Below are positions 2,526 through 43,627 of a stretch of 64,000 nucleotides of DNA, piece after piece. The stretch is from Patescibacteria group bacterium (lineage in GTDB: Bacteria > Patescibacteriota > Microgenomatia > UBA1400 > PJMF01). The DNA lies in NCBI GenBank assembly GCA_016861085.1, contig BOKR01000001.1, forward strand, positions 387,271 to 451,270. The letters are read 5' to 3'. The notes below the pieces were generated by a model. That model was not told the DNA's origin. It was given only the letters and a program-made list of their open reading frames with translations, and ran no database searches. Both the position numbers and the translations under genes were made by a program. Position 1 is the first letter of the stretch. Each line of letters begins with the position of its first letter.

Positions 2526-4037
2526 ATGCATTTTTCTAGTTCACTTGTTGCTGAAGATAAAGCACCTATTCAAGATCACTGTGGCATTTTAGCGTTGATT
2601 GCTCCAATTGACTCTCCCCTATTTACTACAGGTCTGACAGCTTTTAAAACACTACAAACTCGTGGATATGATGGGGCAGGATTTTGGGCAATTGACAGCA
2701 CAGGCAAGGAGTATGGTTTTAAAGGCACCGGTATGATTGATGCAGTATTCACCCCTGCTCGCGTTCGAAAGTTCTCTAAAATTAAAGCTAGAATTTGGTT
2801 ATTTCAGAATCGATATGGCACCTCAGGGAATTTTGACCCGAGAAATGTGCAACCATTTCGTCGCGAGCATTTTCAAAAGCAAGAGATTTTTTGTCTAGCC
2901 CACAACGGGCAATTCTCAAAAAGAAAAGAAACAGACTATCTGGAGCAGTCTGATACTGCAACATTTGCAGATGAACTGAGCAATCAAGAAGGTAATAACT
3001 GGGATGAAAGGCTCTTGAATTTGCTCCAAAAATATACGGGAGCATACAGTTTAATTATGGCTACGCAGTCAGAGATTTTTTGTGCAAGGGATGCGTTAGG
3101 TATTAGGCCATTTGTATTTGGCAAGCTGACAAAAAATCCTCCATTCACTTGGATTGTTGCGTCAGAAACTGCAGCACTCAAAGCAATTGATGCAGTCAAT
3201 TACAAAGAAATATTGCCAGGTACTTTGCTCAAATTTTCTGCTCCAAAATCTGCAACCCATGACCCTATTTGTGTTCAAACGGTAACAACTCAAAAGCAGC
3301 GAGCATATTGTATTTTTGAAAATGTGTATCTCATGGATGAATCGACCCAAGCCCATGCTCCAACAACAGAAACAAGAGAAATCCGTAACCATCAATCAAT
3401 CAACTTAGTACGGTTTACAACAGGCAGAATTATGGCGCGAGAAGCACCGCTGAGCAGGAAACAAGTAGATTTTGTATGTGGTATACCTGGCACTGGAATA
3501 GTTGGTGGGCAGGGATATGCAAATGCCTTAATGTTGCCATATGTTCAAGCCATCGCAGATAGAACAACACCGAACAAAGAACAACGCACTTTTATGTCTG
3601 CTGATGTTGAAGGTATTTTTCAAAAGATGTACGATCATTTTGAGATTGCTTCAGATATGTTCAAAGGAAGAAACGTAGTACTGATTGATGATTCCTTGGT
3701 TAGAGGCAACGTTACTAAAGGCCTGATTAAGTTACTAAGAAATGAGTGTGGAGTTTCTAAAGTACATATAAGAATTCTTTGTCCACCAGTTGATAAGCCT
3801 TGCTATTTAGGTATCAACACTCGAAATGCTAATGAACTTCTAGCTCATAAATACCATGGAAATATTCGCAGTATGCAAAGATATATTGGTGCTGATTCAC
3901 TGGTTTTTCTTTCAAGTGAAGGTTTGCGCGAGGCTATTACTACAAATCCAAAAGCAAAGGGATTTTGTATGGGATGCATGCAAGGATACAAGCCACCAAT
4001 TACTTTGTATGGCAAACGGCAAAAAACGTTAGTTTAG
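2526..4037 (+). CDS. purF: Amidophosphoribosyltransferase-like protein (class II Ntn glutamine amidotransferase domain + type I PRTase domain)
   Basis: N-terminal propeptide then Cys (..DHCGILALIA), RYGTSG..N..QPF and LAHNGQF as in PurF GATase-II. C-terminal PRPP-binding motif VVLIDDSLVRGNVTK. Confidence 0.65.
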   Translation: MHFSSSLVAEDKAPIQDHCGILALIAPIDSPLFTTGLTAFKTLQTRGYDGAGFWAIDSTGKEYGFKGTGMIDAVFTPARVRKFSKIKARIWLFQNRYGTSGNFDPRNVQPFRREHFQKQEIFCLAHNGQFSKRKETDYLEQSDTATFADELSNQEGNNWDERLLNLLQKYTGAYSLIMATQSEIFCARDALGIRPFVFGKLTKNPPFTWIVASETAALKAIDAVNYKEILPGTLLKFSAPKSATHDPICVQTVTTQKQRAYCIFENVYLMDESTQAHAPTTETREIRNHQSINLVRFTTGRIMAREAPLSRKQVDFVCGIPGTGIVGGQGYANALMLPYVQAIADRTTPNKEQRTFMSADVEGIFQKMYDHFEIASDMFKGRNVVLIDDSLVRGNVTKGLIKLLRNECGVSKVHIRILCPPVDKPCYLGINTRNANELLAHKYHGNIRSMQRYIGADSLVFLSSEGLREAITTNPKAKGFCMGCMQGYKPPITLYGKRQKTLV

Positions 4038-41569: not shown

Positions 41570-41962
41570 CTATTTGTTTTTATTTGCTTTGTTTTTTTTG
41601 TATGCAGCCTTTATTCTATCAACTAAATGCCCGGGAAGCATGGGGATTTCCAATTTATCAACATCGCGGTCGGTTAACTCAAACATTTGTAAGGCTCTGT
41701 AGGTATCTCTTACATCAATCCAAGCCGCAATTACTTCGTCAACACCAGCCTCATTTCTTAATCGGTGTTGTCTGTCAAGAAAAAATCTTGCACATTCTTT
41801 GCTTTCTAATCTTTCTACATACCAAGGTTTAGCCTCGGCTTTTTCTTCCTGTTCATACCATGCTTTTCGTCTAAGACTAGCACTTGCCCCTTTTTTTGCA
41901 ACTGCAACTGGAACTGGAACTGGCACACGTTCCTCTTGCTCTTGTCTTAGAATCTTTTTCAT
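41570..41962 (-). CDS. Hypothetical Lys/Glu-rich protein with PVPVPVAVA repeat (about 130 aa) between the T-box-like leader and ileS
   Basis: Coding-like ORF. Start moved to ATG 41962 (the ORF-track start at 41995 is a TTG). Contains the in-frame hexanucleotide tandem repeat (GCAACT)2(GGAACT)2. Confidence 0.45.
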   Translation of the reverse strand: MKKILRQEQEERVPVPVPVAVAKKGASASLRRKAWYEQEEKAEAKPWYVERLESKECARFFLDRQHRLRNEAGVDEVIAAWIDVRDTYRALQMFELTDRDVDKLEIPMLPGHLVDRIKAAYKKNKANKNK

Positions 41963-41991
41963 ATATGTTCCTATTTTTTTACTTAGTACAT

Positions 41992-42298
41992 ACAAAAAGC
42001 CCTCTTGTAATTAGTGTTTTTTCGCGCGAAACGCACTTTTTTCACTAATCACAAGAGGGCCTTCAAGTATACAAACTAAACGGCGGTACCACCTCTTTTT
42101 CTGGAGTAAACGGGTTAGAATTTTCTAACCGATTTCTGATAACCAGAATCTTAATTTCCTGCGATTACGGGCTTACCCGGAAAGATCTAGTTGCTTGTGC
42201 ATGGTCTTGCCAGTGCGCAAACGTTCTTCTTTCACCTCGTCCTGTGATACTCAGCCAAGGGCTGACAGAACTTGTATCGGTTTTTTAATTTTTGAATT
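41992..42298 (-). promoter_or_regulatory. Candidate T-box riboswitch leader (likely tRNA-Ile-responsive) with intrinsic terminator immediately upstream of the small ORF + ileS
   Basis: The minus-strand RNA carries AGAGGUGGUACCGCCG (T-box consensus AGGGUGGNACCGCG; N=U would pair with discriminator A73 of tRNA-Ile). It is followed about 20 nt later by an 18-bp hairpin GCCCUCUUGUGAUUAGUG...CACUAAUUACAAGAGGGC + UUUUU. The terminator 5' arm (CCCUCU) can alternatively pair with the T-box AGAGG, forming an antiterminator. Several AUC codons lie in upstream hairpins. Candidate promoter TCGACG-17-TgtTACAAT at about 42305-42333. Confidence 0.5.
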
Positions 42299-42323
42299 TC
42301 GGGTATTGTAACATATACCTTTT

Positions 42324-42755
42324 TTATCGTCGATAGTGATTATTTTTTTTTGGGATTGGTGGTTCTGGAATTCCACTTCTTTCTTCTAAAGTCATTCTGT
42401 GCCAGAGTTGGTATAGAGTCCAGTCATTTTCACCCTTTGAAAGATTGTTTCTTCTTCGATGTAAGTGGTCAAAATAGTGGCAACGAATACAATACAGCCG
42501 CACATTATCTAACCGATTAAATCGTTTATTATCTCCGTGCTGTATATGCGCAACTTCAAGACTTCGTACATTTGGACATCTGTTCATGCGTTCTCTACCA
42601 TTTGCATCTCTTGTCCTACTTTCACAACGACCTCCTGCTCTCTCATATAGGGATTGTTCAGTTTTTCTATCAATAGCACTGTTGAGGACTAAATAAAGGA
42701 CTGAGGAAATAAAGGCAAACTCTAGACTTTTTGTAAAAATTTCTTTGCGATTCAT
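42324..42755 (-). CDS. HNH endonuclease-family protein with N-terminal hydrophobic segment
   Basis: C..C ... LEVAHIQHGDNKRFNRLDNVRLYCIRCHYFDH, i.e. the HNH (His-Asn-His with CxxC/CxxCH zinc ligands) motif. 143 aa. Confidence 0.65.
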   Translation of the reverse strand: MNRKEIFTKSLEFAFISSVLYLVLNSAIDRKTEQSLYERAGGRCESRTRDANGRERMNRCPNVRSLEVAHIQHGDNKRFNRLDNVRLYCIRCHYFDHLHRRRNNLSKGENDWTLYQLWHRMTLEERSGIPEPPIPKKNNHYRR

Positions 42756-42808: not shown

Positions 42809-43627
42809 ATGACACAAGAAAATTTCATCGATTTTATCTCAACTACTTTGCAAGGTGCGGCAAAAATTGCAGACAAAAATTTTGGAAAAGTTTCATCAAT
42901 TTCAACTAAAACTGGTGACAACAACCAAGTTTTGACAGAGACTGACTTGGAGGTTGGTTACTTTATCATTAACGAAATTCAAAGGGTTTTCCCAGAACAT
43001 AGTATTATTGATGAAGAAGCTGGAGTGATTGATAAAAAATCACAATATACTTGGGTGGTTGATCCAATTGATGGCACAAGCAATTTTGCAAATGGTCTGA
43101 AGACTTACGGTATTATGATGGGGCTTTTGAAGAATGATATCGCAATAGCTGGGGGTATCGTATTGCCAGGATTTAATGAATTATATGTTGCACAAAAAGA
43201 TATGGGTGCATTTTGTAATGATGTTAAAGTATTTGTTTCATCCGAAACCAATCTGCTTAAATCTTTAATTTCGTATGGAATTGATGGACATCAGGAAAAT
43301 CCAGAAGTTACCTATGATGAAACAAAAATCCTTGCGAATATTATTTTAGGTATTAGAAACTTGCGAACAACAAATAGTGCTTATGATATGGCACAAGTAA
43401 TTTGCGGTAGATATGGTGCCTTCTTGAATAGAACAACAAAAATTTGGGACAATGTTGCTTTACAGCCAATTGTTGAAGAAGCTGGTGGAATTGTCACTGA
43501 TTTTTGGGGTAAACCAATGGATTACACAAATGCTTTGCAAAGGTCAAATGAAAACTTTACTATTTGTGCGGCTGCTCCGCAATTGCATAAACAATTACAA
43601 GAAATTATTCATAATCAGGAGAAATAA
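42809..43627 (+). CDS. Inositol monophosphatase family protein (SuhB/IMPase-like)
   Basis: Motifs EEAG (metal-binding), WVVDPIDGTSNFANG, and a C-terminal (W)D.A(A/G) region. Confidence 0.85.
   Translation: MTQENFIDFISTTLQGAAKIADKNFGKVSSISTKTGDNNQVLTETDLEVGYFIINEIQRVFPEHSIIDEEAGVIDKKSQYTWVVDPIDGTSNFANGLKTYGIMMGLLKNDIAIAGGIVLPGFNELYVAQKDMGAFCNDVKVFVSSETNLLKSLISYGIDGHQENPEVTYDETKILANIILGIRNLRTTNSAYDMAQVICGRYGAFLNRTTKIWDNVALQPIVEEAGGIVTDFWGKPMDYTNALQRSNENFTICAAAPQLHKQLQEIIHNQEK

Follow-up and report, generated by a model that had tools for sequence, protein, structure and literature searches.

The window analyzed here is a stretch of 64,000 nucleotides of contig BOKR01000001.1 from a Patescibacteria group bacterium (assembly GCA_016861085.1, positions 387,271 to 451,270 of the forward strand), and all positions below are counted from its first letter. 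On its minus strand, a gene for an HNH-like protein is followed by a small open reading frame (ORF) and by ileS, which encodes isoleucyl-tRNA synthetase (IleRS), and the 330-nt gap between the HNH-like gene and the small ORF carries a T-box leader. T-box riboswitches are the paradigm of an RNA that senses another RNA, and sequence reading places a full leader of this type, with all of its elements in the canonical order, at 42280–41994. We conclude that the region is very probably a tRNA-Ile-specific T-box riboswitch that controls the operon of the small ORF and ileS by transcription attenuation. Directly observed are the sequence elements, their conservation and covariation, a pair of mutually exclusive helices, and the match between the codon in the leader and the gene downstream. 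As for its fold, the 321-nt region is far more stable than its shuffled versions, as evidenced by a z score of −5.97, with none of 100 shuffles being as stable. The parts of the leader and the genes that follow it are listed here.

42333–42305, minus strand: promoter-like site from a consensus scan, with a −35 element TCGACG (42333–42328), a 17-nt spacer and an extended −10 element TgtTACAAT (42313–42305)
42280–42235, minus strand: Stem I, short type, 46 nt (sequence reading and covariation)
42280–42279 with 42236–42235, minus strand: C-stem of Stem I, CC with GG (family covariation)
42271–42266 with 42244–42239, minus strand: lower helix of Stem I, GUUCUG with CAGGAC, six pairs (family and clade covariation)
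42264–42252, minus strand: apical hairpin of Stem I, CAGCC-CUU-GGCUG (clade covariation)
42251–42245, minus strand: specifier loop AGUAUCA, on the 3′ side (sequence reading)
42248–42246, minus strand: specifier AUC, an Ile codon, followed by the purine A42245 (aligned specifier column)
42233–42180, minus strand: Stem II, with a lower helix GAAAG/CUUUC (42233–42229 with 42184–42180) and a variable apical part
42228–42224 opposite 42190–42185, minus strand: S-turn-like purine motifs of Stem II, AAGAA and CUAGAU, at the GAA/AGUA positions of the Rfam T-box model RF00230
42179–42168, minus strand: Stem IIA hairpin CGGG-UAAG-CCCG, in a block (42179–42161) with a conserved GC after the F-box
42171–42165, minus strand: F-box-like CCCGUAA, aligning to the CGUUA F-box positions of RF00230
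42153–42150, minus strand: conserved UAAG (RAG-like purines) in the linker; linker and Stem III together span 42153–42100
42147–42143 with 42104–42100, minus strand: outer helix of Stem III, UCUGG/CCAGA, 90% paired in the clade
within 42153–42100, minus strand: inner hairpin of Stem III, GGUUAGAA/UUCUAACC, variable, 70% paired, with compensatory changes
42096–42081, minus strand: T-box sequence AGAGGUGGUACCGCCG (sequence reading)
42097–42053, minus strand: antiterminator, with helix A1 (AAGAGG 42097–42092 with CCUCUU 42058–42053) and helix A2 (GCC 42084–42082 with GGC 42061–42059)
42091–42085, minus strand: 7-nt bulge UGGUACC between A1 and A2; A2 closes a 20-nt loop
42060–41994, minus strand: intrinsic terminator, an 18-bp stem (42060–42043 with 42016–41999) followed by U5 (41998–41994)
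26 nt between the terminator arms, minus strand: terminator top, an A-rich internal loop and a 5-bp apical mini-hairpin (42036–42024)
41962–41570, minus strand: first cistron, 130-aa protein, ATG at 41962, ribosome-binding site (RBS) UAGGAA at 41973–41968
41558–38712, minus strand: ileS, isoleucine--tRNA ligase, 948 aa, matching NCBIfam TIGR00392 at 856 bits

The T-box core GGTGGNACCGC occurs once in the 64-kb window, where 0.02 occurrences are expected by chance. The terminator (ΔG of −35.7 kcal/mol) begins its 5′ arm 20 nt past the T-box sequence, and the 3′ strands of A2 and A1 (42061–42053) are the start of that same arm. The antiterminator and the terminator are therefore mutually exclusive. 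At the other end of the leader, the transcript is predicted to start near 42298, and most related leaders have a TATAAT box at a similar distance, about 30 nt upstream of Stem I.

A first-pass annotation of this DNA, made from its letters, had read the gap as a leader responsive to tRNA-Ile, an interpretation now borne out by the specifier AUC-A, covariation, the mutually exclusive helices and the match to an independent covariance model described below. The T-box motif that it noticed is indeed on the minus strand, with U as its variable N, the bulge thus reading UGGU; the terminator 5′ arm pairs alternatively with the AGAGG of the T-box, as AAGAGG/CCUCUU and in canonical geometry; and the extended −10 TgtTACAAT is present. 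Its terminator stands as to the 18-bp stem, the U5 and the 20-nt distance from the T-box, while the 26-nt loop it described is an internal loop topped by a 5-bp mini-hairpin. The small ORF, given as 141 aa, is corrected to 130 aa from the ATG at 41962; a TTG start at 41995 would overlap the U-run. A type-2 IleRS gene was expected behind it, and ileS starts 11 nt past the stop codon of the small ORF in the same orientation; after TIGR00392, the models that match it best are those of MupA and MupB, in keeping with a type-2 enzyme.

A family of ileS leaders in Patescibacteria

We sought relatives of the IleRS among 185,579 species genomes and took 80 related ileS loci, which are referred to below, together with further contigs, by L numbers. 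The closest IleRS relatives all come from Patescibacteria, the Candidate Phyla Radiation (CPR), under labels such as Pacebacteria, Microgenomates and Woesebacteria. The host is thus a member of the CPR and not of the Firmicutes, Actinobacteria or Chloroflexi, the lineages to which the first-pass annotation had taken a T-box to point. Many metagenome-assembled genomes with a Patescibacteria-like IleRS and a leader (e.g., L001, L005 and L008–L011) are titled "uncultured Pseudomonadales bacterium" or "Gammaproteobacteria", and these titles look like taxonomic mislabels.

In most of the 80 loci, a pattern scan located the core ..AGG UGGNACC.. about 50–260 nt ahead of ileS, and the motifs of the leader come back there in an unchanged order. 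A covariance model (R1) was then available from an alignment that took in 24 ileS leaders from other Patescibacteria (5′ domains) and left out the window and its clade. In the 64-kb window, R1 finds a single site, at 42261–42152 of the minus strand, with 60.5 bits and E = 5e-12. Over the window and the 80 loci (about 800 kb), it gives 53 matches: the window's own and 52 from the 80 loci, with a single leader per locus. All 53 share the strand of ileS and precede it, and none is found elsewhere in these 800 kb. Alignment by the covariance model misplaces Stem I in two groups, the window's clade with its apical insertion and a subclass that carries an extra hairpin; MAFFT alignments were used for both. 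In that subclass (L006–L009, L027, L031, L036, L045, L053, L055, L059, L062, L064, L071 and L073), the extra hairpin is located between Stem I and Stem II, and the insertion is closed by a GCGUC...GACGCAG helix.

The 5′ domain shows extensive covariation. Among the 24 leaders, 94.6% of the cells in the C-stem and in Stems I, II and IIA are paired, compared with 30–50% in slid controls, and 17 of the 21 pairs exhibit compensatory changes (122 cells); these values are reached in none of 500 shuffles. The lower helix of Stem II is 99% paired, with compensatory changes at all five of its pairs in the 24 genomes, and the GAAGAA and AGUAGA motifs of Stem II are conserved in the leader family. The Stem IIA/F-box block is near-invariant in 49 of the 53 leaders. 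As its residues do not vary, it yields no covariation signal for Stem IIB, and we presume that the block forms the IIA/B pseudoknot. Stem III is missing from many relatives, in which the distance from the F-box to the bulge is 38–40 nt. In the window's own clade (11 sequences, some of them from metagenomes), 92.6% of the terminator-state structure is paired, compared with 35–50% when slid; the terminator stem itself is 97.5% paired in the 11 members, with three compensatory pairs, and its apical mini-hairpin is conserved.

At 46 nt, the window's Stem I is longer than that of most relatives, which have about 30 nt. The AG bulge and distal-loop platform that contacts the tRNA elbow (the interdigitated double T-loop motif, IDTM) is absent from the window's Stem I. 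The family consensus for the kink-turn (K-turn) is CC-GUUU-GA...(G/A)A-GG with a covarying C-stem, and the GA is kept in most relatives; the bulged strand reads UA, CA or AA in the closest relatives of the window. All 49 aligned leaders, 48 from related loci and that of the window, have AUC in the specifier column, and AUC is also seen in the upstream part of L021 and in metagenome leaders of the window's clade. Most of the aligned leaders have A just 3′ of AUC and a few have G; L023, L041 and L042 have a pyrimidine there. L030 shows the discriminator half only.

For the 3′ half of the leader, we scored a layout as canonical if A1 had 4 bp or more and A2 3 bp or more, with a 7-nt bulge and abutting 3′ strands. 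Such an antiterminator is present in 50 of the 53 leaders and in 10% of shuffles. A hairpin followed by at least 5 U (5–8 U) is found in 44 of the 53, and in 42 of these 44 it overlaps the 3′ strand of A1. When 5′ and 3′ halves of leaders were combined in a chimera test, a solution was found for 47% of the non-cognate pairs, compared with 94% of the cognate ones. Both helices covary across the family: A1 appears as AGAGG/CCUCU, CAGGC/GCCUG and UCGGGG/CCCCGA, and A2 as GCC/GGC, ACCA/UGGU and ACGAG/CUCGU.

The codon and the bulge residue also change together with the regulated gene. When metagenome contigs were searched for the F-box block, further leaders of the same architecture were recovered, more of them preceding ileS and others, on contigs without an assigned taxonomy, with different specificities: UCC before serS, UGG before trpS and GAC before aspS, the gene identities being confirmed in each case. 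The bulge in these leaders reads UGGC, as opposed to UGGU in ileS leaders, where N is U in 48 of 53. In well-studied bacteria, the discriminator is G73 in tRNA-Ser, tRNA-Trp and tRNA-Asp and A73 in tRNA-Ile, and by analogy the UGGC bulge fits the G73 of the first three. That the specifier and the bulge residue switch along with the regulated gene, as read from these contigs, is the functional signature of T-boxes. Leaders of other specificities are located in L142 (minus strand, about 1065–1143), L085 (minus strand, 1401–1481), L126 (55–134) and L150 (7282–7370). One of these leaders, upstream of a cysK/cysM-like gene, carries an odd bulge, CGGAACC. In three metagenome loci with weak R1 matches (L122, L099 and L114), a short terminator-like hairpin comes after the F-box block, and some 100 nt beyond it lies a second AAGGUGGUACCG T-box core, an arrangement that may be a tandem or rearranged T-box.

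Mode of action and alternative explanations

The scheme that we infer for the window leader covers where transcription starts and from which promoter, how the tRNA binds, the pseudoknot, and what follows for regulation. Transcription would begin at the TGn-TACAAT promoter, and the nascent leader would fold the short Stem I, the AUC of its loop pairing with the GAU anticodon of tRNA-Ile. The S-turn-like purines of Stem II and the IIA/B F-box pseudoknot would then brace the codon–anticodon duplex, in the manner of the actinobacterial ileS T-boxes whose structures are solved (PMC7583486). No contact with the tRNA elbow is envisaged, since this Stem I is missing the distal platform. The 3′-ACCA of an uncharged tRNA would pair with the UGGU of the bulge and thereby stabilize the A1/A2 antiterminator, which would keep CCUCUU and GGC from the terminator, allowing RNA polymerase to read through into the 130-aa ORF and ileS. 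With tRNA charged or absent, the far more stable 18-bp terminator would form, and transcription would stop at the U-run, 41998–41994.

The short Stem I raises the question of whether the leader acts on transcription at all. According to reviews, transcriptional T-boxes generally require a long Stem I with an elbow-binding motif, and translational ones are marked by a Stem I that is short or ultrashort (PMC7583486, PMC11297988, PMC12990946). The window leader could accordingly belong with the actinobacterial ileS class and act on translation, the hairpin being a sequestrator or an mRNA stability element. Two relatives give this some substance. In L030 (about 3940–4001) and L039 (about 3915–3975), the post-T-box hairpin is short and only a few nucleotides separate its 3′ arm, UAGAGG, from the start codon of ileS, so that it could sequester an RBS; L039 also has no clean U-run. 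These two may be translational, Shine-Dalgarno-sequestering variants inside the same CPR family. In the window, however, U5 directly follows the hairpin, and the RBS UAGGAA is about 20 nt downstream of the U-run and takes part in neither alternative helix, which argues against sequestration of the Shine-Dalgarno sequence. Most relatives are built likewise, as 44 of the 53 leaders have a hairpin with 5–8 U and a Shine-Dalgarno sequence further downstream, outside the hairpin. We therefore consider translational control of the window operon improbable and retain transcription attenuation.

Several observations do weigh against that assignment. At gathering thresholds, Rfam reports four tRNAs and no T-box in the 64-kb window, nor does it report a T-box in any of the 15 related loci scanned. 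In a permissive scan of 41900–42400 (501 nt), RF00230 scores the window at 20.3 bits (E = 0.02), far under its gathering score of 93. The K-turn of the window is degenerate, with AA for GA on the bulged strand (42273–42272), and its Stem I is without the elbow-binding platform that reviews call essential in transcriptional T-boxes (PMC7583486), which leaves efficient co-transcriptional capture of the tRNA unproven. The antiterminator helices are invariant in the close clade of the window, and that alignment offers no covariation for them; a count of pairs is uninformative there, which is why the shuffle and chimera tests across the wider family were used. In addition, five ileS leaders with an AUC specifier do not have U in the bulge: L013, L049 and L074 read UGGAACC, and L014 and L027 read UGGCACC. 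If their tRNA-Ile has A73, the discriminator rule does not account for these leaders; either the tRNA-Ile of those genomes has a different discriminator, or the mismatch is tolerated. Finally, no tRNA-Ile gene is present in the window or in loci L001–L060, and the pairing of the bulge U with A73 is a prediction for this genome.

The low Rfam score we attribute to the truncation of Stem I and not to missing homology. The alignment of the window to RF00230 spans the full model (positions 1–219), with matches at the GA and GAA/AGUA motifs as well as at the F-box and the T-box sequence. It is Stem I that is replaced, 85 model positions by 34 nt in the window and 86 by 19 nt in L010, a typical relative, which scores a clearly significant 37.2 bits (E = 5.6e-07). 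The first-pass annotation had named RF00230 and a foldable Stem I as places where its proposal could be checked, and the T-box reading comes through both, with qualifications. The full-length alignment and the score of L010 speak for it, and the score of the window itself is weak; a foldable Stem I presents AUC and the purine A as anticipated, though it is of the short type and without an intact K-turn GA. Other weak Rfam matches (snR91, mir-581, RNA-OUT and others, E of 0.1–7) were set aside as chance matches explained by the long terminator hairpin. A plus-strand reading of the region was likewise rejected, as it offers short antisense ORFs only, and its lone terminator-like match is the inner hairpin of Stem III in reverse, with no real T-run.

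The extent of the regulated unit can also be questioned, as the 130-aa ORF is the first cistron past the terminator and, given that ileS directly follows the leader in most relatives (including the close relatives L002–L005 and L013), appears as an insertion; the leader might then regulate this ORF only, with ileS being expressed separately. The 11 nt from its stop codon to the ileS start leave no room for a promoter or a terminator, however, and the specifier is an Ile codon. Furthermore, homologues with 31–47% identity are located between a T-box leader and ileS in L001, L201 and L204. That the order of leader, ORF and ileS is kept at this level of divergence indicates that the small ORF belongs stably to the operon within this sub-lineage, and we regard separate expression of ileS as highly unlikely. 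The remaining alternative, in which there is no riboswitch and the hairpin is the terminator of the upstream HNH gene with a promoter following or overlapping it and a T-box motif that arose by chance, can point to the end of the HNH ORF at 42324 on the same strand, after which some terminator is expected, and to the Rfam score below threshold, but it is already contradicted by the comparative data and has hardly any probability left: the leader is kept in relatives without an upstream HNH gene (that of L201 follows a divergent inositol-phosphatase-family gene), the independent model R1 detects the leader with E = 5e-12, five helices upstream of the terminator are backed by covariation, and for four specificities the codon agrees with the gene that follows.

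Relation to known T-boxes

The closest parallels are the class II ileS T-boxes of Actinobacteria, known from Mycobacterium tuberculosis, M. smegmatis and Nocardia farcinica (PDB 6UFG, 6UFH and 6UFM; PMC7583486). As in that class, the window leader would regulate ileS and carries an AUC specifier in or near the terminal loop of a truncated Stem I, without the AG-bulge/distal-loop platform. The two further share the S-turn purines of Stem II, the IIA/B F-box block, the UGGU bulge and the A1/A2 helices, as well as insertions in Stem III and atop A2, which have been noted for the actinobacterial class (PMC7583486). They differ in the expression platform, which in the window is an intrinsic terminator with a U-run and no Shine-Dalgarno sequestrator. 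The host differs as well, being a member of the Patescibacteria, many CPR leaders have no Stem III at all, and in metagenomes leaders of this architecture also precede serS, trpS and aspS, whereas the actinobacterial class has been described for ileS.

With the transcriptional T-boxes of Firmicutes (RF00230; e.g., Bacillus subtilis tyrS and glyQS), the leader shares the specifier, the bulge for the tRNA 3′ end, the choice between antiterminator and terminator, and the U-run. The order of the elements is also the same, and the GA motif (degenerate in the window), S-turn, F-box and T-box sequence align to RF00230. Unlike the Firmicutes T-boxes, in which about 85 model positions are taken up by the long arm and elbow platform of Stem I, the CPR leaders have 19–34 nt in their place, and with scores of 20–37 bits they stay far below the gathering score, which is 93. 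In the window, the T-box sequence is AGAGGUGGUACCGCC, as opposed to AGGGUGGNACCGCG in Firmicutes. Since the elbow platform is missing from the accepted actinobacterial ileS T-boxes too, it defines the canonical subclass and not the whole family.

The window leader is thus a tRNA-Ile T-box, with a short Stem I and an intrinsic terminator, from a widespread CPR group that lies under the annotation threshold. On balance, we lean towards a broader view, in which the CPR contains a large unannotated clade of T-boxes that act on ileS (and, in related contigs, on serS, trpS and aspS) by transcription termination with a short or ultrashort Stem I, no elbow platform and often no Stem III. Full-text searches found no publication that joins T-boxes with CPR, Patescibacteria or the names of CPR phyla, although some actinobacterial short-Stem-I leaders with terminators may already be described. 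Annotation would be expected to pass over such leaders, as the Rfam threshold and the search design of TBDB would both miss them, the TBDB class II model having been run only on Actinobacteria and on sequences that RF00230 had already found (PMC7778990).

If this view is right, the phyletic range of T-boxes extends to the CPR, and these leaders are a natural counter-example to the notion that transcriptional T-boxes need elbow contact for fast co-transcriptional capture of the tRNA. The window leader and its 52 relatives from the 80 CPR ileS loci, which combine a short decoding module with a classical terminator, would offer natural material on the need for elbow contact in kinetic control. 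They would also indicate that reduced CPR genomes, with few recognizable regulators, keep a tRNA-charging feedback on aminoacyl-tRNA synthetases. In the emerging genetics of Patescibacteria (PMC11665869), such leaders could serve as native ligand-responsive expression elements.

The small ORF and neighboring genes

The 130-aa product of the first cistron is identical to the NCBI hypothetical protein BroJett025_04140. Its PV-rich N-terminus is predicted to be disordered, and an AlphaFold2 model, made from an alignment of four sequences, shows a helical C-terminal domain with a predicted local distance difference test score of about 90 over residues 45–130. The protein matches no Pfam family, its model gave no informative fold match, and only four representative clusters match it among 1.84 billion proteins. 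Judging from its place in the operon, it would be co-regulated with IleRS and is a candidate partner of isoleucine or tRNA-Ile metabolism. An insertion of another kind is seen in L033 (2533–4002), where the T-box leader is 1.36 kb upstream of ileS and is separated from it by two ORFs (200 and 215 aa) that are paralogues of each other and bear no relation to the small protein of the window.

Upstream, between the leader promoter and a divergent gene, the window encodes a 143-aa protein (42755–42324, minus strand) with a weak match to HNH endonucleases (E = 0.028). The divergent gene (42809–43627, plus strand) has the same position as a gene of the Pfam family Inositol_P (PF00459) next to the leader in L201. 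The HNH gene is present in L001 too and looks like an insertion, because in L201 the inositol-phosphatase-family gene directly adjoins the leader. In L022, a DUF3800-V RNA (RF02964, 62.8 bits) is found at 2821–2915 of the plus strand, about 0.8 kb upstream of the ileS T-box leader.

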